A DNA stretch of 55,337 bases from Candidatus Woesearchaeota archaeon (lineage in GTDB: Archaea > Nanobdellota > Nanobdellia > Woesearchaeales > GW2011-AR4): NCBI GenBank assembly GCA_016192985.1, contig JACPTC010000024.1, forward strand, positions 1 to 55,337. The letters are read 5' to 3'. The position numbers were made by a program, and so were the translations under genes. The notes below the pieces were generated by a model. That model was not told where the DNA came from, did no database searches, and saw only the letters and a list, made by a program, of their open reading frames with translations. This document shows, in pieces, positions 2,140-55,095 of the stretch (the stretch's first letter is position 1; each line of letters begins with the position of its first letter).

Positions 2140-3375
2140 ATGCAAATTCCATTCAGGCAGCACAAAGGATATGATCCTCTTGGAGATTGTGGAAAAGGCA
2201 AATGCCCGATTTGCGCAAGGAACAATGCTGTTTTTAGAGTTAAAAATTTCTTGAGTAAAGAGGAATTCACAAGCGACGGAGTAGCTCCATTTGTTGGAAG
2301 ATATGGCTATCCTTATGTTAATGTGGGTATTCTTGCCCCTCCTGAGCAAAGTGATGATTCATGGATTTATGATGCGCCAAAATATTGGTCTGCTGAAAAT
2401 TATGAAATTCCAAAAATTGTTGATTTTAGAAGTTCTTTGCTGAACTCAAGGTATAATATCAATATTAAAAAGAGGATAAAATTGCTGGGTTTATCGCAGG
2501 ATATTGCAATGTCCTCAAAGCCTGTTGATGTCGACATTCAATTAGCTGAAAAGCCAAAATTCCGCTTAAATCTTGATTCCCATATGGCTCCAACAGGCCC
2601 GAATGCCAAGCTGAAAAAAGCAACACTCACGGAAAACCCCAAAATACATACAAAAGTCTACAAGGTTTTTGATGATATTGACATGAAGGCAAATGACGCA
2701 GTCAACTATCTTTATGAAAACAATTTTGATGAAAACTTCCTGAGCAGGATATTGAGTGTTGGTACGCTAGGCTTGAAGGTTAATAGAAAACTTACACCGA
2801 CTAGATGGAGTATAGTTGCTGTCGATGATGTAATTGGAAAAAATTTGATTAATGAAATAAAAGACTACAGCGAGATTGATTCTTATTATTCATTCTTTGG
2901 AAACTATTTAGGCAATTATTATTTGATTTTAATGTTTCCAGAAGTGTGGAGTTATGAGTTATTTGAAACATACATTCCATCAAACTGGAATTTCAGCAGA
3001 GAGCTTAGGCGCAGCACTGATTTTGAGGATTATTTTGGAAGAAAAAGCTATGCCGAGATAACAGCAGGAGGGTATTATAGTACGCGCCTTGCGACTTTAG
3101 AGCATTTAGCAAAATTAAAACGACAAGCAAGTGTATTGGTGCTGCGATTCATAACAGATGAGTACACTATGCCCTTAGGTGTCTGGGTCACTCGTCAAAC
3201 TGCTAGGAAAGCATTTGAAAAAAATCCAATAGAATTCTCTTCAAAAGAACTAATGTTTGAATATGCAAGAAAATTAATCAAAAGAAAATTTAACTATAAC
3301 GTTGATTTTGTATTGAACAAAAGCAATTTACTGAAAAATATAAAACAGCAGACAAAGTTAGAAAGATTTATTTGA
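2140..3375 (+). CDS. NreA-like archaeal DNA repair protein (Nre family, tentative)
   Basis: N-terminal CGKGKCPIC followed by PFVGRYGYPYVNVGILAPP, as I recall for Nre_N. The C-terminus QTKLERFI fits a PCNA-interacting PIP box (Qxx[LIM]xx[FY][FYLI]). Confidence 0.55.
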   Translation: MQIPFRQHKGYDPLGDCGKGKCPICARNNAVFRVKNFLSKEEFTSDGVAPFVGRYGYPYVNVGILAPPEQSDDSWIYDAPKYWSAENYEIPKIVDFRSSLLNSRYNINIKKRIKLLGLSQDIAMSSKPVDVDIQLAEKPKFRLNLDSHMAPTGPNAKLKKATLTENPKIHTKVYKVFDDIDMKANDAVNYLYENNFDENFLSRILSVGTLGLKVNRKLTPTRWSIVAVDDVIGKNLINEIKDYSEIDSYYSFFGNYLGNYYLILMFPEVWSYELFETYIPSNWNFSRELRRSTDFEDYFGRKSYAEITAGGYYSTRLATLEHLAKLKRQASVLVLRFITDEYTMPLGVWVTRQTARKAFEKNPIEFSSKELMFEYARKLIKRKFNYNVDFVLNKSNLLKNIKQQTKLERFI

Positions 3376-5057: not shown

Positions 5058-6464
5058 TTACAAATAATCCCTTACATCGACAATCTTGCCGTTTATGGCA
5101 GCAACAACAACCATTGCAGGGCTCATAAGCAAGGTTCTTCCTTTTGGAGAGCCTTGCCTGCCTATAAAATTCCTGTTTGAAGATGATGCGCATATCTCGT
5201 TTCCTTCTAACTTGTCTTCATTCATTCCAAGGCACATTGAGCAGCCTGCATTTCTCCATTCAAACCCGGAATCCTCAAAGATACTGTCTAAGCCTTGCTG
5301 CTCTGCAGCTTTTTTAACTTGCTGCGAGCCCGGCACCACAATCGCCTTGACATTTTTGGCAACTTTTTTTCCCTCAACAACTCTTGCGCCTTCTTTCAAA
5401 TCAGAAAGTCTTGAGTTGGTGCACGAGCCAAGAAAAGCTACATCAATCCTTGTTCCTTTAATTTCCTGCCCCTGCGCAAATCCCATATGCTGCAATGCAA
5501 GCTTTGCATTTTCCTTTTCTTCAGGCGCCAGCTCGTCAACTTTGGGGATTTTACCGCTAATTGGAATTGCCTGGCCTGGGTTAATGCCCCATGTCACCAT
5601 AGGCTCAAGCTCTGATGCATTCATCTTGACAGTGTCATCATATTCAGAATTTTTATCGGATGTAATTGATTTCCAGTATTCAATGGCATTTTCAAACTTA
5701 TCACCATTTGGTGCGAATGCCTTGTTTTGTATGTAGTCAAAAGTTTTTTGGTCCGGGTTTGTATAGCCGCATTTTGCGCCGCCTTCAATTGACATATTGC
5801 ATATTGTCATCCTCTCTTCCATTGTCATTTCCTCAATTGATTGGCCGGCATATTCATAAGCATATCCAATTCCACCTTTCACACCCAGCTTTTTTATTAT
5901 TGCCAATATCACATCTTTTGCATAAACTCCTCTTGAAAGGCTGCCTTCAATGTCTATTTTCCTCACTTTAGGTTTGTCCAGTGCAAGGCATTGGGTTGCT
6001 AGAACATCTCTTACTTGGCTTGTTCCAATGCCCAAGGCTATGCAGCCAAATGCGCCATGAGTGCTTGTGTGCGAGTCACCGCAAGCAATTGTCATGCCTG
6101 GTTGTGTCAATCCAAGCTCAGGCCCGATGACATGGACAATTCCTTGGCTCATTGTTGATATGTCAAAAAGCCTTATTCCAAACTCCTTGGCATTTTTTTC
6201 AAGCTCAAACATCATCTGCTCAGCAAGAGTGTCTGTAAAGGGTCTTGACTGGGATTTTGTTGGAATTATGTGGTCAACAGTTGCAAATGTCCTTTCAGGG
6301 CAGGCAACCTTCAAGTTTCTTTCCCTCAGCATCTGGAATGCTTGTGGAGATGTCACTTCATGAATCAAGTGCAGCCCCACAAATAACTGAGTTTGCCCGT
6401 TAGGAAGCTCTCTTATTGAATGCAGGTCCCACACCTTATTGAACAAGTTTTTAGACATATTCAT
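5058..6464 (-). CDS. leuC: 3-isopropylmalate dehydratase large subunit
   Basis: Aconitase-family motifs ([31 protein letters not shown] Fe-S ligands). Confidence 0.9.
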
Positions 6465-7949
6465 CAGTTTTTTGCTTTTTCTTGAAAGTCAGCGCTTTAT
6501 TGGCGCCCTTGATAATTGCATTGACAGATGCCATTATCACATCAGGCTCAACTGCCTCGGAAATAAATACATTCTTCTTCTCATCTTCAAACTTTATTGA
6601 GACGCTTGCAAGCGCATTAGTGCCACCTGTAACCGCCCTTAGGTTGTATTCCTTAAGGTTGATAAACGGTCCCATGATTGATTTTATGGCATTAGAGGCT
6701 GCATCAACAGGCCCGACACCAGTCGCTGTGCCTAATTTTTTTTCTCCATTCACTATCAACCCAATTGTTGAGTTTGGCGTTATCCTGTTTCCCGTGATAA
6801 CAGTTAACTCATCGAGCTTTATTAAATCATCTTCTTTTTCCAATTCATGAACGACATCAAAGGCTAAAGCGATTATATCCTCTTTTTCAATCTCTTTCTG
6901 CTTGTCGGAAAGTTCCTTTACTTTTGCAGTAACCTTGTCAAGCTGGGCTTTGTCAAGATATATGCCTGCCTGCCCCAGCACCATGCTGACTGCATGCTTG
7001 CCTGAAAGCTTTCCAAAAACAATCTTATCCCCTATCCACCCAATGTCTTCCGGAACCATTATTTCATAAGTTTTTGCGTAAGAAATCACGCCATGCTGGT
7101 GTATGCCTGACTGGTGGGCAAATGCATTTCTGCCGACAATTGCTTTGTTCCTCTGTATGTCCATCTTGCTTAGCTTTGAAACAAGCTGGCTTGTATTGAA
7201 TATCTCCTTTGTGTTGGCATTTGTGTAAGCATTATAGTACTCTCTCCTTGTCTTTAAAGCCATTATCACTTCTTCCAAAGCTGTGTTGCCTGCTCTTTCG
7301 CCTATCCCATTGATTGTCCCTTCCACTTGTGTTGCGCCATTCATTATTGCTGCAAGGGAATTGGCAGTTGCAAGCCCGAGGTCATTATGGCAGTGGGCGC
7401 TCAAAACAATTCCTTGTAGGTTAGGCACATTCTCTAAGATATACCTAAATCTTGCTCCGAATTCATCCGGCTGAGCATACCCTACTGTATCAGGAATGTT
7501 GGTGGTTGTAGCTCCTGCAGCTACAGCTTCTTCTATAACATTGCACATGAAACCCATTTCTGTCCTAGAGGCGTCTTCTGGAGAAAATTCAATGTTATCA
7601 CAATAGGACTTTGCGTATTTGACCATGGTTCCAAATGTATTTGGGAGGTTGCAACAAACACATGTATTCTTGGCTTCTCGGCTTTTTTGACAGCGTTCCA
7701 TGCTGCATCTATGTCTTCCTTTGCTGTTCTCGCCAATGCGCAGATAACAGGAGCCTTTACTTCCTTGGATATTGATTCCACTGCCTCGAACGAGCCTTTA
7801 GACGCAATTGGAAATCCTGCTTCAATTATGTCGACATTGAGCTTCTCAAGCTGCTTTGCTATCATCAGCTTTTCATTTGGCGCGATGTTCGCGCCAGGGC
7901 TTTGCTCTCCATCCCTCAAGGTTGTATCAAAAATATAAATTTGTTTCAT
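6451..7949 (-). pseudogene. leuA: 2-isopropylmalate/(R)-citramalate synthase, disrupted by a frameshift with a short internal deletion
   Basis: The N-terminal ORF (7533-7949: [14 protein letters not shown]...[13 protein letters not shown]) and the C-terminal ORF (6451-7701: [23 protein letters not shown]...HCHNDLGLATANS...LeuA-dimer region) are in different frames. IHL ends at 7632 and MVKYAK starts at 7626. The ~15-17 residues normally between them are absent. Confidence 0.75.
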
Positions 7950-18374: not shown

Positions 18375-18423
18375 TTTAAGCTATACAATCCAATTTTTTA
18401 CTCATTAAATGGGGCTGCCCGGA

Positions 18424-18545
18424 ATTTCATCAACCGTTTGCATTCGTCAAAAGTTTTCATTCGAGGGACTTTATGTCCCTACCAGTTTTCTTTTGGTCAA
18501 GCTTTTCTTTGCGAGGCTCTCTTGAGCGAGCAAAGAAAAGGTTGT
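18424..18545 (-). other. putative 122-nt intron in the T-loop (about position 59/60) of tRNA-Pro
   Basis: Flanks fold as T-stem CCCGG:CCGGG, 3' bulge ATT, 4-bp helix TTCA:TGAA, 5' bulge AAA, helix CAACC:GGTTG (relaxed bulge-helix-bulge). Homologous to the insert at 54788-55081. Confidence 0.65.
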
Positions 18546-18601
18546 TTTGAACCGGGGTCTTCTGGTCCCAAACCAGAAAGGATGTGTCCAAGCTACCCTA
18601 C

Positions 18602-18663
18602 AGCTTCATGCAGTGAGTTTTGTTGTGTTTTAATGTCACTAGTCCCATGCTTGGTAGCTTTCT
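18602..18663 (-). other. putative ~62-nt intron in the 5' acceptor stem of tRNA-Pro
   Basis: GGGGCT / insert / G is needed to pair with CAGCCCC. The junction is ambiguous by up to 3 nt because GCT is repeated at both ends. The intron 5' part AAGCTACC is complementary to the D-arm GGTAGCTT. Confidence 0.55.
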
Positions 18664-18861
18664 AGCCCCGCCTACGAGTATTAATACCTTGTTTTTAAAT
18701 CTATCGTTGGAAAGATAATTTTGAAGCAAATTCATAAAAATAAAACTGGCAAAGAATGTGGGCAAGAGATTAAAAAAGTTGTTTTAAAGATACCATAAAA
18801 GCCCATTTTGAGTTAACAGCTGGAAAATATCTTAATCTTTATAAATCATCATTAATTCTAC

Positions 18862-21483
18862 ATGGATATGGCACTAACAGAAGCGCAGAGGTTTCATTTA
18901 AAGAAGTTCATTAAGGAATTGGAACGGCATAGGGGCAGGCATACTGAGTTAGTCAGTGTTTACATTCCGAAGGATTATGATATGAACAAGATAATCAACC
19001 ATCTTGCTCAGGAGCAGGGTACAGCATCAAATATTAAATCATCAGCAACAAGGAATAATGTGACAGACGCCCTTGAAAGGATGATTCAGCACTTAAAGCT
19101 ATTCAAGACAACGCCAGCAAATGGGTTAGCTGTGTTTTCCGGCAATGTGGCTGAAAGAGAGGGGCAGCAAGACTTTAAGGTTTGGAGCCTAGAGCCGCCT
19201 GTGCCGTTAAAGACAAGGATTTACAGGTGTGACAAGGAATTTGTTCTTGATATACTAAGAGACATGCTTGAGGCTAAAGAGGTTTATGGATTGGTTGTCA
19301 TGGACAGGAGAGACGCCAATCTGGCTCTTCTCAAAGGAAAGACAATTATTCCAATCGTTAAAACTCATTCAGAGGTGCCTGGAAAATTTAAAGCGGGGGG
19401 ACAATGTCTTGTAAAAGGTACTTTAATTCAATCAACTGATGGCCTCGTCCTGCCAATTGAAAATTTTCATAATCCAAAAAGTGTCAAAAGTATGATTACA
19501 GAAAATTTATCAATGTCGGACTCAGCAATAGCTGATAAATGGAATGTAAATAAGGAAGAAGTTTACAAGATAATTACAAGATATCCTAGACTTGAAGTAC
19601 AATCCTCTAAAGACCACATATTTTTTGTCTCAACTCCAAATGGGCTTATTGAAAGAGCTGCTGAAGAGCTTAAAGTAGGAGATTTCTTAATTATGCCTGA
19701 AAAAATTGATATAAAGGGTGATGTACAGAGTATTAATTCTAAAAAATACTATAATTCATTTATAGTTACTAAAGAAGGTCAAGAACTTCTAAAACAAGCA
19801 CGTTTAAAAATGAAATCGCTTCAAAGAGAACTAGCTAAAAGAATTGGTGCAACACAAACAACAATCTCTTCTTATGAAATTGGCAAACTCCATGCTGAAA
19901 AAGAGCCGTTAAAGCGCTTATGCGAAGAATTAGGCATAGATTTTGAAGGATTTATACAAAAATACACTAAACAGCATCATCACCAGAATGTAAGTATAAG
20001 ATTACCTGAAACCTTAAATCCAGATTTTGCACAATTTCTCGGTTATTTTATAGGTGATGGCTGTTTAGAGACCGATAGACTTACGTTCTTCGAACAGGAT
20101 AAACAAGTTGCTTTAGCTTATAAAAAGAGGTATGAAAAATATTTTAATCTAAGAATAAGTTATCGTTTCAGAAAAAGTAAGAGTTATCATCAATTAAGAT
20201 TCACCAGTAGGCCGCTTGTTAGATTAATTATAAATGAATTTCCAGAAATTAGAAAAGCATTGGATACTGAGATTCCAGAAAAAATTCTTAAGTCAAAAGA
20301 TGAAGTAATTGCGGCTTTTCTAAGGGGGTTATTTGACGCAGAAGGGTATATCTCAGGAAAATTAGCTATTGGGATGAACAATAAAAAAATAATTCAACAA
20401 ATACAAATGGCTTTGCTTAGATTTGGAATAATATCTTCTATGCTTGAATATGACAACAAACAAAATCCTTATAGTAGAAAACATAGATTCACATTAGAAA
20501 TGTCGGAAAAAGAATCTTTAGAATTATACCAAAAGTTTATAGGTTTCTCGTCTAAAATGAAGTCAGAAAAATTAGAAACAGGCATAAAAAATAGAACACT
20601 TAGGAGCAATGTGCGACAGATTATTATTCCAGGTAAAATGATTGGTAAATTGCTAAAAGAAGCTGAGTATAGTTTAGGAAACTTCCGAGTTTCTTTGTTT
20701 TTTACAAACAAAAGAATGATGAGTAAAGCAGTTTTTTACAATAAGTTTGTACCTCAAATAAAAAATAGTAAACTTAAAAAAGAATTACTTAGAATTTATA
20801 ACATACCTATTTTGCCTGTAAAAATACATAAAATTGAATTTGTAAAAGAAAATATGGAGATGATTGACATTTCTGTAAAAGATAAGAGTTTTATAGCAAA
20901 TGGGTTAATAGTTCATAATTCAGCCCAAAGATTCCATCGCCTTATAGAAGGGGCAGCGAAAGACCATTATAAGAAAGTGGCTGAATATATGAAAGAAGCC
21001 TTTCTTAATATGGAAGGGTTGAAGGGAATAATTGTTGGCGGCCCAGGCCCCACGAAATATGATCTTGTTGAAGGTGGCTACATAACAAATGAAGTGAAGA
21101 AGAAAATAATTGCAATAAAGGATTTAAGCTATACCGGCGAATTTGGCCTTGAGGAGTTGCTTGAGAAAAGCCATGATGTTTTGGCTCAGGAAGATGTAAT
21201 TGAGGAGAAGAAAATAGTTGGCAAGTTCTTTGAGATGCTTGCAACGAAACAGAATATGGTTGCTTATGGAGAATCTGATGTAATGAAAAAGCTTAAAATG
21301 GGCGTTGTTGATATCCTGATTTTATCAGAAGACTTGCCTGATGAGAAAATTGAGGAGTTTGAGGCAACTTCAAAGCCAGTTGGAACAGAAATAAGGATTA
21401 TTTCAACGCAAACAAGGGAAGGAGTCCAGCTCCGTGATTTGGGAAAAGTAGCTGCTATTTTAAGGTATGAGGTTTACGTATAA
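18862..21483 (+). CDS. prf1: peptide chain release factor aRF1, interrupted by an intein
   Basis: Exteins: 181 aa ending ...GKFKAGGQ and 187 aa starting SAQRFHRLIEGAAK..., which rejoin as the universal GGQSAxRF motif. NIKS motif at TASNIKS. The true start may be the second ATG (18868), given the TATA at 18838-18845. Confidence 0.9.
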   Translation: MDMALTEAQRFHLKKFIKELERHRGRHTELVSVYIPKDYDMNKIINHLAQEQGTASNIKSSATRNNVTDALERMIQHLKLFKTTPANGLAVFSGNVAEREGQQDFKVWSLEPPVPLKTRIYRCDKEFVLDILRDMLEAKEVYGLVVMDRRDANLALLKGKTIIPIVKTHSEVPGKFKAGGQCLVKGTLIQSTDGLVLPIENFHNPKSVKSMITENLSMSDSAIADKWNVNKEEVYKIITRYPRLEVQSSKDHIFFVSTPNGLIERAAEELKVGDFLIMPEKIDIKGDVQSINSKKYYNSFIVTKEGQELLKQARLKMKSLQRELAKRIGATQTTISSYEIGKLHAEKEPLKRLCEELGIDFEGFIQKYTKQHHHQNVSIRLPETLNPDFAQFLGYFIGDGCLETDRLTFFEQDKQVALAYKKRYEKYFNLRISYRFRKSKSYHQLRFTSRPLVRLIINEFPEIRKALDTEIPEKILKSKDEVIAAFLRGLFDAEGYISGKLAIGMNNKKIIQQIQMALLRFGIISSMLEYDNKQNPYSRKHRFTLEMSEKESLELYQKFIGFSSKMKSEKLETGIKNRTLRSNVRQIIIPGKMIGKLLKEAEYSLGNFRVSLFFTNKRMMSKAVFYNKFVPQIKNSKLKKELLRIYNIPILPVKIHKIEFVKENMEMIDISVKDKSFIANGLIVHNSAQRFHRLIEGAAKDHYKKVAEYMKEAFLNMEGLKGIIVGGPGPTKYDLVEGGYITNEVKKKIIAIKDLSYTGEFGLEELLEKSHDVLAQEDVIEEKKIVGKFFEMLATKQNMVAYGESDVMKKLKMGVVDILILSEDLPDEKIEEFEATSKPVGTEIRIISTQTREGVQLRDLGKVAAILRYEVYV
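19405..20919 (+). mobile_element. 505-aa intein with LAGLIDADG homing-endonuclease domain and an HTH segment
   Basis: - Starts with Cys (CLVKGTLIQ) and ends with ...GLIVHN, followed by Ser+1.
- Block-B-like SSKDH.
- LAGLIDADG motifs FLGYFIGDGC and FLRGLFDAEGYI.
- Cro/C1-like HTH LQRELAKRIGATQTTISSYEIGK (about 19810-19950). Confidence 0.85.
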
Positions 21484-22532: not shown

Positions 22533-24437
22533 ATGTACTGCATCTTTAAAAACAGGAGAAAGGTTACAAGGAAAAAAGAGAACAAAGCTCAGGTTACCTT
22601 TTACGCAATTCTTGGCTTATTCTTGTTTATGTTTCTAATTATAGGGGTGTTTTACTATAATAATGTTAAAGAGCAGCGGGCTAGAGAAGAAGCTGCTAAG
22701 ATACAGGAAATAAACCTTAATGCTCAGGAAATAGAGAGATTAGTAAGCGACTGCATAAGAAAGGAATCGTTTGATGGCTTAAAAATACTTGGACGGGCAG
22801 CTGGATATTTTGAGATTCCAATGCTTATAGACTATAAAGGCACTGCAATGTGGCAGTTCGATCAGGCAAACATTCAGCCATTTCTCAACCAAACTCAGGA
22901 AAGATTGATTGAGTATGTTGATAAGAATGTTCCAAAATGCTTTGAAAATGCAAATGTTACCCAGTACGGGTTTTTAATAGAGAAAAAAGAGCCAAAAACC
23001 TTTATGGAATTTGGCGCAAGCGATGTCACAATAAAAGTTATTTACCCAATAAAGGTAAGCAAAGGGCAGTTTACAAAGGAATTTTCTGAATTTTTTAACA
23101 CTTTTAACATAAGGTATCGTGCTATTTATGAGGCTGCAACTGAGGTTAATGAAAGGCTTTTTGACGCTGATTTTGACATAAAGAATCCACTGAAGAAACT
23201 TGATTACTTAAAGGGCATGGATTTTGACATTAGCTACAAGATGCTGCAAGAGGATATTATAACTTTTACAGTTACAGATAAAAGGTCAATAACTCCTGAA
23301 AACCAAAATTATATGTTCAGCTTTGCGGCAAAGCTTGGAAACTCCACATTGAAAAAGTTAACCACTTTGCAGAACAGAAGCGCAACGAATCCTGCGGTGC
23401 TGCCTTATACAATTTATTCTGTTGACAAGAAAGCGCAGCTTGATATTTTTGCAGGAACAACAGTAAATCTGGATGGCAAGGATGCAGAATATATTAGCGT
23501 GCAGCAGGCTTATCCAAATAATTTGACAACAAAGGATATCCCGCAGCATAAGAAAAACGACCAAATTGTAAGGAGAGGTGATGACAGCTATGTGATTGAC
23601 AATCCTGTTTACAACTTCGAGCCGACAGGAATAAGGTTCAACAAGCCAGAAAAATTGACTATTTATTATGAGGATGAAGCAAAGGCAGGCAAAGGCGTTG
23701 GAATTTTGATGGGCAAGAAAGACGCAAAGAAAAAAGGAAGCGGTGAAGGAAAAAAATATGGTTATGAAGATTTCTTCTGGGTTCCTATTCCCTCAAGCCA
23801 TGACATTCAGAATAAAAGAGTTATAGCAAACATACTTGGCTTTACATCCTTCACAGCAGTAAACTGCGCTTCACAGCAATTAAAGGACAAAATAGGAGAG
23901 CATTTTTTTGAGCCGGAAACTACTTGTTATGTTAGTTTGGCGATAATGATTTTGGCAATTTTGTTGGTTGTAGTTACATTTGGTGCTGGACTGGCTGTTG
24001 CCGCTCTTGGAGCTACTGCTGCACCCGGAAGTGCTTTGGCCGTGGGGGCTGGCGCTCTTAGTAGTGGATATATGGCAGCCGGTGCTTCAGCAATTGGTAC
24101 TGCTATTGGAGTAGGTGCTGGAGTAGTCACTGGTGTGGTCGCTGCTGTATCTGTTATTAGTACAGGTATGTCAGTCATCGGCTCAACCACAGACGCTTAC
24201 TGGGGAACATCAGGAGATAATTGCGTAACATTTTACCCATTGTGCGACCAGAATGTTGAAATTGTTATGGAGAAATCAACCGATGAGGCAGAAGGGCAAT
24301 GCGTTCCTGAAAAAGGGCAAAGAGTTGCTGCAGGCACTGCTTCTATGGTATGCGCACAAGTTGAGGGTTGCGGCAATTTCTTAGACAAGACTCTGTGCAA
24401 ATCTTGCAGCATCAAGTGCACTGCCAAGGTTTATTGA
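22533..24437 (+). CDS. membrane/surface protein with pilin-like class III signal peptide, Gly/Ala-zipper TM region and Cys-rich tail
   Basis: - N-terminus ...KENKAQVTFYAILGLFLFMFLIIGV fits [KR][GA][Q..][ILV..] prepilin-peptidase sites.
- The N-terminal ~100 aa are paralogous to the 27989 gene.
- C-terminus has GAGLAVAALGATAAPGSALAVGAGAL...
- Terminal CGNFLDKTLCKSCSIKC. Confidence 0.6.
   Translation: MYCIFKNRRKVTRKKENKAQVTFYAILGLFLFMFLIIGVFYYNNVKEQRAREEAAKIQEINLNAQEIERLVSDCIRKESFDGLKILGRAAGYFEIPMLIDYKGTAMWQFDQANIQPFLNQTQERLIEYVDKNVPKCFENANVTQYGFLIEKKEPKTFMEFGASDVTIKVIYPIKVSKGQFTKEFSEFFNTFNIRYRAIYEAATEVNERLFDADFDIKNPLKKLDYLKGMDFDISYKMLQEDIITFTVTDKRSITPENQNYMFSFAAKLGNSTLKKLTTLQNRSATNPAVLPYTIYSVDKKAQLDIFAGTTVNLDGKDAEYISVQQAYPNNLTTKDIPQHKKNDQIVRRGDDSYVIDNPVYNFEPTGIRFNKPEKLTIYYEDEAKAGKGVGILMGKKDAKKKGSGEGKKYGYEDFFWVPIPSSHDIQNKRVIANILGFTSFTAVNCASQQLKDKIGEHFFEPETTCYVSLAIMILAILLVVVTFGAGLAVAALGATAAPGSALAVGAGALSSGYMAAGASAIGTAIGVGAGVVTGVVAAVSVISTGMSVIGSTTDAYWGTSGDNCVTFYPLCDQNVEIVMEKSTDEAEGQCVPEKGQRVAAGTASMVCAQVEGCGNFLDKTLCKSCSIKCTAKVY
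24373..24437 (+). repeat. direct repeat copy 1 (last 65 nt of the 22533-24437 CDS)
   Basis: 60/65 identical to 25074-25138. All 5 differences are third-position or synonymous (gac/gat, gcc/gcg, aag/aaa, tat/tac, tga/taa). Confidence 0.9.
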
Positions 24438-24453
24438 AATTTTTTCAGCAAGA

Positions 24454-24711: not shown

Positions 24712-25064
24712 TGAGGGGCTTCTTTAAATTTGGGAGCCCTGTTATAGATTTGTCTATTGAAGGAAGAAGAATTGGGACATTATTGGATACAGGTTTTAAC
24801 GGGCATATTATGCTGCCATTGCCAATAATCAGGGAACTTGCCTTGGACAAAATTGGAATTTCTGATTATTTGACAGCAAGCGGGGATGGCAAAATAACAG
24901 AAGTGTACAAAGGTAAAATAATTTTTTTGAATGAAAAAATAGAAGTGCCTATATTGTCAACAGATGCAGATTTTTCATTAGCAGGAATGGAGTTGTTTCA
25001 TGAGTGTAAGATAATTATTGAAAGGAATAAAGATTTTGTTGAAGTTAGTAAATCTGTAAAGTGA
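24711..25064 (+). CDS. retropepsin-like clan AA aspartic protease (DTGF, AF_0612-type)
   Basis: LLDTGFNGHIMLP active-site motif, ~117 aa, size typical of single-lobe retropepsins that act as homodimers. Confidence 0.7.
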   Translation: MRGFFKFGSPVIDLSIEGRRIGTLLDTGFNGHIMLPLPIIRELALDKIGISDYLTASGDGKITEVYKGKIIFLNEKIEVPILSTDADFSLAGMELFHECKIIIERNKDFVEVSKSVK

Positions 25065-25073
25065 ATTGTGTCT

Positions 25074-25138
25074 GCAATTTCTTAGATAAGACTCTGTGCA
25101 AATCTTGCAGCATCAAGTGCACTGCGAAAGTTTACTAA
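25074..25138 (+). repeat. direct repeat copy 2 (orphan copy of a coding 3' end)
   Basis: Reads ...CNFLDKTLCKSCSIKCTAKVY* in its own frame. That frame is open only from 25052, so it is a remnant without a gene body. Confidence 0.9.
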
Positions 25139-25146
25139 ATAAAATA

Positions 25147-54536: not shown

Positions 54537-54633
54537 TTTATGTCAAGCAGTTACATTTGTTTATAAGTTTAATCGTTTTAAATTAAACCAAATCAACAAA
54601 TTTTATAAAGGTAAAGATACTCTTTTTCTATAT

Positions 54634-55095
54634 GCCGCGGTCGCATAGCCCGGCCATTGCGGTGATTTGCTGACAATTGTGAGCGAGGTAAATCTCATAT
54701 GTCACACAAACTGCAAGATTGCTAAGGGCTATAGCCTTGAACAATGGCTGTAAAGATCCACTGTCCGCAAGGATACGGGAGTTCAAAAACAACCTTTTCT
54801 TTGCTCGCAAGAGCCTCGCAAAGAAAAGCGTGACCAACAACGGTAGCCCGTTGACATCTGTGGGTTTCGCAACTTCGTTGCTCAAGCCCACGAAAATTCG
54901 TTGGATTAAGCAGTGAGATGGTGAGCGAGGTTCGACGAGCTCACCTCGCATGTCACGCGAAATCCAACTTGATTAAGACGTCAACTGACTTTGCAGTTGT
55001 GACCAAAAGAAAACGTGGGAGGGATTTTCTGATAAAATCCCTCAATAGAAATATCTTGGGAATGAAAGGGTTGTGTGAAAGTCTCCCCCGCGGCG
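54634..55095 (+). tRNA. tRNA-Ser: class II tRNA, probably tRNA-Ser(GCU), with three putative introns
   Basis: - Acceptor GCCGCGG pairs with CCGCGGC, plus discriminator G.
- D-arm GCA-TAGCCCGGCCAT-TGC.
- Anticodon stem GTGAT...GTCAC with loop TT-GCT-G (anticodon 54669-54671).
- Long variable arm T-GTCC-GCAA-GGAT-AC.
- T-arm GGGAG-TTCAAA|T-CTCCC.
- 462 nt minus inserts of about 27, 56 and 294 nt gives 85 nt.
- TTTTATAAAG lies ~27 nt upstream and a T7 run downstream. Confidence 0.65.
54788..55081 (+). other. putative 294-nt intron in the T-loop of the Ser-like tRNA
   Basis: Flanks fold as GGGAG:CTCCC, 3' bulge AGT, helix TTCA:TGAA, 5' bulge AAA, helix ACAACC:GGTTGT. The 5' and 3' modules are homologous to the tRNA-Pro T-loop insert. 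Confidence 0.6.

Follow-up and report, generated by a model that had tools for sequence, protein, structure and literature searches.

Putative bulge-helix-bulge introns of one family, probably translocatable, in tRNA genes and one 23S rRNA gene from Woesearchaeota and related archaea

Two related inserts in tRNA genes of a Woesearchaeota contig

The DNA analysed here, called the window throughout, is a 55,337-nucleotide (nt) contig stretch from a Candidatus Woesearchaeota archaeon (GCA_016192985.1, contig JACPTC010000024.1), and our subject is a pair of related inserts that interrupt the T-loops of two of its tRNA genes. The insert in the tRNA-Pro(UGG) gene is 122 nt long (18424-18545, minus strand) and lies directly 3' of GGTTCAAA, and that in the tRNA-Ser(GCU) gene is 294 nt long (54788-55081, plus strand), lies directly 3' of AGTTCAAA and starts with AACAACC; both fall between positions 59 and 60 of the host tRNA. 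All statements about RNA in this text are predictions from DNA sequence. The inserts can be aligned over a 5' block (ACAACCTTTTCTTTGCTCGC..GCCTCGCAAAGAAAAGC[T/G]TGACCAA) and a 3' block (AAGAAAAC..GGGA-hairpin-TCCC..GGTTG..TGAAA), and we refer to the shared sequence as the module. Counting of the 20-mer ACAACCTTTTCTTTGCTCGC gave exactly two occurrences in the window and none in 100 shuffles, and the match between the two inserts is not due to chance. The two copies lie 36 kb apart on one contig, and neither a profile hidden Markov model nor a covariance model detected a third in the window. An earlier note on this DNA had described two homologous inserts of these lengths, and alignment and exact occurrence counts bore out its coordinates and shared sequence, while the duplicated 20-mer and the covariance model upheld the homology. 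The note also had both inserts begin alike; the shared 5' block is real, but the Ser insert starts at the AACAACC given above.

The raw window yielded no tRNA calls from ARAGORN, with or without its anticodon-intron mode, or from the Rfam tRNA models. With the inserts removed in silico, ARAGORN called tRNA-Pro(UGG) and tRNA-Ser(GCU), both with clean cloverleaves. Unconstrained folding of each T-arm together with its insert produced the 5-bp T-stem, a 4-bp UUCA:UGAA helix, a pair of 3-nt bulges, one on either strand, and an inner helix formed by the insert ends (CAACC:GGUUG). This bulge-helix-bulge (BHB) pattern was seen in the minimum-energy and centroid folds alike at both loci, and the folding z-scores were -3.3 (Pro) and -5.7 (Ser), with no shuffle folding equally well. 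If each bulge is cut 3' of its second nucleotide, the T-loop UUCAAAU is restored in silico, in agreement with the proposal of the earlier note that these are BHB-type introns of the T-loop. The motif is of a relaxed form, with one or two additional nucleotides opposite the 5' bulge. Scored against the covariance model, the Pro intron reached 113 bits (E = 8e-26), and the Ser intron was matched in two halves (54790-54867 and 54982-55073), its extra length consisting of a 161-nt nested insertion (54838-54998) between 8-bp direct repeats GTGACCAA. Rfam gave no match for either insert at the gathering threshold or at E <= 10, group I and group II ribozyme cores included, for which the module, at 106-122 nt, is also too small; the module alignment contained no conserved box C/D (RUGAUGA, CUGA) or H/ACA boxes.

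A wider family in tRNA genes and its reach into 23S rRNA

Genome contigs were scanned with the pattern CCTTTTCTTTGC..GCAAAGAAAAG, which proved too generic and found mostly bacterial terminator-like hairpins (4 relevant among the 117 matches listed), and metagenome contigs were scanned with a more specific 21-mer, which gave 10 loci made up of 8 true copies and 2 chance matches in coding-like DNA. Most copies were collected by such exact patterns, and the covariance model was built from 6 copies. At least 12 further full copies of about 105-120 nt were found, all in tRNA genes of Woesearchaeota-like contigs (cited below by our own L numbers). Each host of a true copy was checked by in-silico splicing with ARAGORN, and 11 host genes besides the window pair gave standard tRNAs. 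The module interrupts position 59/60 in two Glu(UUC) genes, two Ala(UGC) genes, one Ser(GCU) gene and genes that ARAGORN called Phe(GAA) and Ile(UAU) (for the hosts in L081 and L118 the identity is that of the ARAGORN call alone), position 37/38 in two Pro(GGG) genes and one Pro(CGG) gene, and either 38/39 or 37/38 in a His(GUG) gene. The covariance model scored 11 intact copies, from 8 tRNA identities, at 82-130 bits and also matched the two Ser halves and L081. The family thus comprises homologous introns in non-orthologous tRNA genes and at differing tRNA positions, with more than one copy in the genome of the window. The earlier note had suggested a covariance-model search for further copies and had reasoned that a module found mainly outside tRNA genes would be a generic repeat; the copies lie mainly in tRNA genes, and the family does extend to rRNA. 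No copy between genes was seen among about 15 copies, a limited sample drawn by exact patterns from the matches listed, and viral contigs, phage records and plasmid records gave no module match.

The copy in L118 has its core inverted relative to the tRNA, with the flanks UUCAAAA and A-UGAA-AAU unchanged; eight of the nine independent host sites carry the module in the sense orientation. By their 3' halves the copies sort into two subfamilies that cross host identity, and different subfamilies occupy the orthologous Ser genes of the window and L126, the orthologous Ala genes of L120 and L125, and the two sites in the window. The differences in identity are modest, and we regard this distribution as only suggestive of movement. 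Intron content varies strongly among orthologous tRNA-Glu(UUC) genes: the one in L118 (about 2440-2620, minus strand) apparently holds two introns in the D-loop and a short one of 31 nt in the T-loop, and those in L044 (3989-4238) and L121 (6900-7130) each hold one D-loop intron and the module.

A reduced copy was found by the covariance model in L125 (68 nt matched, 3092-3159). It forms a 76-nt insertion in an archaeal large-subunit rRNA gene, at a point where the Rfam model expects 1 nt, and lies in the loop of a conserved GGUUC-loop hairpin (consensus cccggGUuCAnccggg) which is T-loop-like. The copy retains the module ends, has hairpin 1 of the module shortened to CTTTT-GCG-AAAAG, contains an 18-mer identical to the module (GAAAAGCTTGACCAAAAG) and is predicted to fold as a relaxed splice motif. 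Since the 23S rRNA gene of L125 (1174-5133) is 3960 nt long against a model of 2987 positions, it must hold about 1 kb of insertions; another 100 or so extra nucleotides were noted near 3220-3340. The presence of the same module in many tRNA genes that are not homologous, at two loop positions, and also in a hairpin of 23S rRNA is a distribution that cannot be put down to vertical descent, and because the hosts are tRNAs of differing identity together with an rRNA, the insertion sites cannot share a common descent.

Mini, maxi and expanded forms

Orthologs of the tRNA-Pro(UGG) gene from five contig sets have mini-introns of 20-21 nt at 59/60, in four different sequences (TAACCGCTTGGTTGCGAAAC, AAACCATGAGGTTATGAAAA, AAACCATCAGGTTATGAAAG and GTAACCAAAAGTTTTTGAAAC) that keep the module ends, share the terminal pattern AACC..GGTT(G)-N-(T/C)GAA and lack the module interior. 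The ortholog in L128 has a mini-intron, yet its exons are identical to those of the window gene. A similar mini-intron in a tRNA of L121 was the sole new result of a custom T-arm intron scan, which otherwise gave many A+T-rich false positives. The family therefore has three sizes, namely a mini form of about 20 nt that consists of the ends alone, a maxi form of about 110 nt and an expanded form of about 300 nt with other repeat elements, which indicates that introns of different genes have gained or lost an interior of about 100 nt or exchanged it among themselves. In this lineage 59/60 is a common intron site and, in tRNA-Pro(UGG), one that is older than the module, so the part that moved may have been the interior of about 100 nt, or a whole intron replacing a mini-intron, as opposed to an entry into an empty site. 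Transposition of introns between tRNA genes, as the earlier note had it, is accordingly supported by the presence of the module in many non-homologous tRNA genes but fits less simply at the Pro locus, where mini-introns occupy the older site.

Splice-motif geometry and structural conservation

Every copy, whether in a T-loop, an anticodon loop or the rRNA hairpin, interrupts a 7-nt loop on a 5-bp stem, directly 3' of the sixth loop nucleotide. We compiled a junction table for 18 introns, 13 maxi and 5 mini, under a 3-4-3 rule that sets a 4-bp central helix between two 3-nt bulges. The central helices follow the host loop, with UUCA:UGAA in 11 cases and UUCG:UGAA, UUGG:CUAA, UUGG:CCAA and UUCG:CGAA besides, and one is mismatched (UUCA:CGAA). 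The core ends in 10-bp inverted repeats (CAACCTTTTC/GAAAAGGTTG); within the splice motif, the same bases make up its inner RNA helix. The flanks of the module are complementary (TTCA / TGAA), not direct repeats, and a comparison of flanks across the junction table found no target-site duplication.

The predicted fold of the module core consists of two hairpins and their enclosing helices. In the covariance-model alignment, 3 of the 6 pairs of hairpin 2 show double changes that are compensatory, a count reached by none of 500 shuffles and set against 0-1 in slid controls. RNAalifold run on a MAFFT alignment returned no covariation, hairpin 2 being misaligned there. Hairpin 1 and the terminal helix were invariant in the collected sample, the tip of hairpin 1 varying through indels that preserve the stem, as the earlier note had observed for the two window copies when it called its hairpin indels compensatory. 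In the diverged member in L135, hairpin 1 is shortened to CTTTT-GAG-AAAAG.

The tRNA-Pro(UGG) gene

The Pro gene has two introns, of which the earlier note had recognised the one at 59/60 and missed one at 3/4; for the Ser gene, described below, it had likewise identified the host and the intron at 59/60 and missed those at 29/30 and 37/38, three introns in all. On the minus strand, a TATA-like box (TTTAAAAA, 18692-18699) lies 23-30 nt upstream of the start of a predicted 23-nt pre-tRNA leader (GGGGCTAGAAAGCTACCAAGCAT, 18647-18669); the box is invariant in an alignment with L128, L130 and L131, and the leader motif is kept in the same three contigs. The AGCTACC of the leader is predicted to pair with GGTAGCT of the D-arm, which would give the first splice motif its outer helix. 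Exon 1 is only 3 nt long (G1-G3, 18644-18646), as placed by a comparative BHB model whose spliced product is a perfect cloverleaf, and is followed by intron 1 (39 nt, 18605-18643, position 3/4), whose junction architecture is common to L128 and L130. Its central helix is CATG:CATG, its bulges are GG|A(C) and AA|G, and its inner helix is TAGTGA:TCACTG. Exon 2 (positions 4-59, 18546-18604) carries the anticodon TGG, ends in the TTCAAA of the T-loop and is the same as the L128 exon. Intron 2 is the 122-nt insert, a full-length member of the family with its core CAACCTTTTC...CGGTTG at 18431-18544. The UGAA near its 3' end (18426-18429) pairs with the T-loop UUCA (18548-18551) in both the minimum-energy and centroid folds and in the junction table of 18 introns, and its 3' bulge is A18425 U18424 | U18423. 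Exon 3 (positions 60-73, TCCGGGCAGCCCCA, 18410-18423) was delimited by in-silico splicing and ARAGORN.

The orthologous Pro loci adjoin an eL43 gene (L128/L129, L130, L131/L132, L137), and the TATA box and the leader GGGGCT..AGCTACC.. are conserved among them; the closest homologues of the eL43 and aIF5A of the window are labelled Candidatus Woesearchaeota. The intron at 3/4 is 20 nt in L128 (a strict BHB) and 17 nt in L130 and is absent from L131, L132 and L137. Its splice motif, in which the palindrome CATG pairs with a second CATG, is common to the window, L128 and L130. A 62-nt alternative for intron 1, starting after the upstream GGGGCT, was dropped as having no splice motif, and comparison with L128, L130 and L131 assigns GGGGCT to the leader. 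In L130 (about 1040-1095) the unit AAGCATGGG, which comprises the leader end and G1-G3, recurs 7 nt downstream, and the CATG of both repeat copies forms the central helix, so that spliced and unspliced RNA would share a 5' end. It looks as if the intron at 3/4 (window 18605-18669; L130; L128 about 1040-1100) was born by local duplication. The downstream copy has decayed to GCATGAA in the window and in L128, which would make splicing obligatory there. Next to the Pro gene lies a gene for the peptide chain release factor aRF1 (18862-21483, plus strand) with an intein containing LAGLIDADG and HTH domains; the aRF1 ortholog has an intein match in L130 and none in L131.

The tRNA-Ser(GCU) gene and its nested insertion

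The Ser gene, on the plus strand, is preceded by a TATA-like box (TTTTATAAA, 54601-54609) located 25-33 nt upstream of G1. Exon 1 (positions 1-29, 54634-54664) was placed with the help of the orthologs in L126 and L135, and intron 1 (52 nt, 54665-54716, position 29/30) is conserved in both. The latter has a central helix GCGG:CUGC (GCGG:CCGU in L126) and an inner helix UUUG:CAAA. Exon 2 is an 8-nt micro-exon (GATTGCTA, 54717-54724) with the anticodon GCT, called as Ser(GCU) by ARAGORN on the spliced sequence and kept in L126 and L135. In-silico splicing delimited the remaining parts, namely intron 2 (31 nt, 54725-54755, canonical 37/38, central helix UUGC:GUAA), exon 3 (54756-54787, with the 3' strand of the anticodon stem, the long variable arm, the T-stem and TTCAAA) and exon 4 (positions 60-73, TCTCCCCCGCGGCG, 55082-55095), exons 3 and 4 being separated by intron 3, the 294-nt insert at 59/60, which covariance-model halves and folds identify as a module member with a nested insertion. 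The same three-intron architecture with the same micro-exon is found in L126 and L135. An ARAGORN call of tRNA-Ala(UGC) on the partly spliced gene was replaced by this conserved Ser(GCU) model. The earlier note had taken TTGCTGA for the Ser anticodon loop; this decoy lies within intron 1, and the true loop is GATTGCTAA (54717-54725), conserved in L126 and L135. The start of intron 1 (ATTTGCTGAC, 54665-54680) resembles the true anticodon-loop region (GATTGCTAAG, 54717-54727). Such mimicry may be another trace of intron birth by duplication.

The nested insertion in intron 3 (repeats GTGACCAA at 54830-54837 and 54999-55006) is absent from the Ser ortholog in L126. In the near-identical contig L133, which breaks within the insertion, its 3' end is present. 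A nested BHB intron was ruled out as its origin, since GTGACCAA contains no palindromic 4-mer and offers no splice-motif pairing. The insertion carries the core of a second repeat family (GTGAGCGAGG..CCTCGCATGTCAC), of which Ser intron 1 holds another (GTGAGCGAGG..ATGTCAC); the general form of this core is GTGAGCGAG(G)..hairpin..C(C)TCGCATGTCAC. Members occur inside tRNA introns in either orientation, in Ser intron 1 and the nested insertion, inverted in an anticodon intron of L120 and shortened in L135. Copies between genes in L120 and L125 are MITE-like (resembling miniature inverted-repeat transposable elements), with long flanking inverted repeats (cggcgaaaatt...aattttcgcc). The sites noted were 54679-54710 and 54921-54960 in the window, about 800-900 and 280-380 in L120, about 1-100, 400-500 and 500-600 in L125, and about 330-375 in L135.

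Interpretation of the inserts and alternative explanations

We consider it probable that both inserts are archaeal BHB introns at position 59/60 and belong to one translocatable family whose interior can be gained, lost or exchanged. The observations behind this interpretation are the homology of the inserts, their gene contexts, the splice-motif geometry, the covariation in hairpin 2 and the presence or absence of the module in orthologs. Splicing would follow the established archaeal pathway, in line with the splice-motif geometry and with the in-vitro cleavage of a 59/60 intron by an endonuclease from DPANN (PMC3239211). The pre-tRNA would be transcribed from the TATA-box promoter, and its T-stem would serve as the outer helix, with T-loop nucleotides 54-57 (UUCA) and the UGAA near the 3' end of the intron forming the 4-bp central helix and the intron ends CAACC(UUUUC) and (GAAAA)GGUUG forming the inner helix. 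Both splice sites would then lie in 3-nt bulges, where the tRNA splicing endonuclease would cleave after A59 and before U60, and an RtcB-type ligase would join the exons, restore UUCAAAU and release an intron that is probably circular. The four nucleotides that pair with the host loop vary with the host sequence. As regards movement, on balance we favour spread by DNA-level exchange or insertion among introns with common ends (GGTTCAAA(N)CAACC and GGTTG(N)TGAAA), which we rank somewhat above an RNA-level route. The positional pattern could come from selection for spliceability under either, and although the excised RNA may act in trans, the explanation does not depend on it.

Several points weigh against a translocatable family of spliced introns, or limit how far it carries. 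The relaxed motif, with its extra nucleotides facing the 5' bulge, would require a broad-specificity endonuclease, and Pfam scans of the 46 open reading frames (ORFs) of the window gave no match to a splicing endonuclease or ligase; a reverse transcriptase was likewise not seen in the window, and no gene for an endonuclease, ligase, reverse transcriptase or transposase tied to the family was identified among those ORFs. The near-invariance of hairpin 1 is partly an ascertainment effect, because the copies were collected by exact patterns, and the L135 member, which was found via synteny, escapes both patterns and the covariance model. Copies outside RNA genes could be missed, the genome-contig scan being one of matches listed. 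The direction of change, finally, may be from mini to maxi or from maxi to mini, both of which remain candidates.

The alternatives concern either the route of movement or the nature of the inserts. One, which addresses the route only and overlaps with the translocatable-intron interpretation, is that a MITE-like DNA cassette of about 100 nt enters the apical loop of existing short BHB introns, or is recombined between them, and is tolerated since the host intron is spliced out. We give this somewhat less than an even chance. A single gain in the window is more parsimonious than several losses when five Pro(UGG) lineages have mini-introns and the window alone has 122 nt, and the 10-bp inverted-repeat ends, the inverted core with intact flanks and the second repeat family, which does enter these introns at the DNA level with an 8-bp target-duplication-like repeat and intergenic copies, all fit such a cassette. 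The module itself, however, has no target-site duplication, no intergenic copy among about 15, no match in viral, phage or plasmid data, a sense orientation at 8 of 9 independent sites and no identified transposase partner, and it always fills the entire intron up to the splice-motif nucleotides. The sense bias and the lack of a target duplication would favour reverse splicing, in which an excised intron pairs by its UGAA tail with the UUCR that opens a 7-nt hairpin loop of another RNA, is inserted there by endonuclease and ligase, and returns to DNA when this product is copied. The strict site geometry is what an RNA enzyme recognises, UGAA suits every T-loop as well as the anticodon loop of Pro(CGG), and trans-formed splice motifs can drive RNA recombination (PMC8707768). 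We nevertheless regard reverse splicing as unlikely, as it needs a reverse transcriptase and recombination, neither seen in the window nor found documented for the lineage, calls for extra DNA-level events to account for the inverted copy and the mini-introns, and predicts positions that random insertion with selection for spliceability would also give. A broader and rather doubtful proposal sees in the module a mobile element that is non-autonomous, is specialised on hairpins of stable RNAs with T-loop-like loops of 7 nt and lives as a parasite on the BHB splicing pathway, spreading by RNA-guided reverse splicing or hairpin-targeted DNA transposition. Since the module brings its own half of the splice motif, host tRNA splicing enzymes would erase each insertion at the RNA level, and the mini, maxi, inverted and nested forms would, if this were true, be intermediates of the element.

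It is also conceivable, if improbable, that the excised RNA is functional as a stable circular, protein-binding or guide RNA and that the module spread by selection instead of selfish mobility. The compensatory changes in hairpin 2 and the sense bias would suit this explanation, as would the retention of the hairpin 1 5' strand and the GCTTGACCAAAAG linker even where the patterns did not force it, the rRNA copy included, and the analogy with box C/D-bearing tRNA-Trp introns of Euryarchaeota. Against it stand the lack of an Rfam match and of conserved C/D or H/ACA boxes, the 20-nt mini-introns that suffice in orthologous genes, the shortening of hairpin 1 in L135 and in the rRNA copy, and the one antisense copy. 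That the loci are decayed pseudogenes or assembly artefacts containing an unspliced generic repeat is very improbable. The silence of standard tRNA finders on the window and the extreme fragmentation, with exons of 3 and 8 nt, are what one would expect of such loci, but perfect cloverleaves form after in-silico splicing, promoters are conserved and loci syntenic in independent assemblies from several projects, each junction has a splice motif whose central-helix pairing is kept between orthologs (GCGG:CUGC vs GCGG:CCGU), and none of about 15 module copies was found between genes.

Relation to known systems and significance

Non-canonical and multiple tRNA introns are well established in archaea (PMC3239211, PMC4033280, PMC4090602, PMC4390854). 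The closest parallel to a translocatable family is found in Thermoproteales, among whose tRNA genes "large-scale intron transposition" is reported in the relevant passages of PMC4033280 and PMC4090602. As those passages present the work of Fujishima et al. 2010, the translocatable introns there are near-identical BHB introns in tRNAs of different identity, at canonical as well as non-canonical sites, and the phenomenon was, as in our case, deduced from sequence alone. The present lineage is a DPANN member, Woesearchaeota, with about 37% G+C. Its introns appear to be far larger (about 105-120 nt, with a maximum near 330 nt), share a conserved fold of several hairpins and differ in their mini and maxi forms, inverted copy, nested repeats and 23S rRNA member. 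In the literature searched, no shared intron family was described for Woesearchaeota. The tRNA genes of ARMAN-2 and Micrarchaeota likewise combine a DPANN background with non-canonical 59/60 introns, relaxed BHB motifs and highly disrupted tRNA sets, and the broad-specificity endonuclease of ARMAN-2 cleaves 59/60 introns in vitro; the introns there are short, and no shared family was reported among them (PMC3239211).

Likenesses to other elements are more partial. The module shares with MITEs, which are small non-autonomous transposable elements with inverted-repeat ends, its size of about 100 nt, the absence of coding sequence, strong secondary structure, inverted-repeat ends and one reversed copy; it differs in its orientation bias, in having neither a target-site duplication nor a found intergenic copy, and in ends that always complete a splice motif. 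Some euryarchaeal pre-tRNA-Trp introns carry a box C/D guide RNA, in a single tRNA, at 37/38 and with recognisable boxes. They resemble the module as folded archaeal tRNA introns of about 100 nt removed through a BHB, whereas the module lacks C/D boxes and an Rfam match and has many host genes. Archaeal rRNA BHB introns, with or without homing endonuclease genes, are usually long and ORF-bearing or are unrelated mini-introns, and the rRNA intron described here, of about 70 nt, is ORF-free and homologous to tRNA introns. Their presence or absence is known to vary between lineages (PMC4496867).

The phenomenon itself is therefore a known one, and what appears to be new, on the sequence comparisons above, is the lineage, a much larger folded cassette under structural selection, the mini, maxi and expanded forms, and the reach into 23S rRNA. 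The family is informative on the spread of archaeal introns in that one cassette occupies many tRNAs, two loop positions and an rRNA with host-matched pairing, orthologs exist with and without it, and inverted and nested forms are at hand; with it, the question of how such introns spread becomes testable. The silence of tRNA finders on a 55-kb window with at least two tRNA genes also exposes an annotation blind spot and supports the suspicion that disrupted tRNA genes have gone undetected in DPANN, Woesearchaeota included (PMC5829648). The tRNA counts for such genomes are likely underestimates, which affects completeness estimates and codon-usage inferences.

Other features of the window

A 2-isopropylmalate / homocitrate synthase-like gene (6451-7949, minus strand) is split into two overlapping ORFs, one for the N-terminal HMGL part (7533-7949) and one for the rest (6451-7701), which could reflect a frameshift, a sequencing error or a pseudogene. 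Between 22515 and 38652 lie 16 kb of consecutive ORFs, one of them of 1531 aa, with no Pfam match except one zinc ribbon; the stretch could encode a block of lineage-specific surface proteins or represent an integrated element. An 81-nt direct repeat of 85% identity (24358-24438 and 25059-25139) occupies the 3' ends of two adjacent ORFs without known domains.

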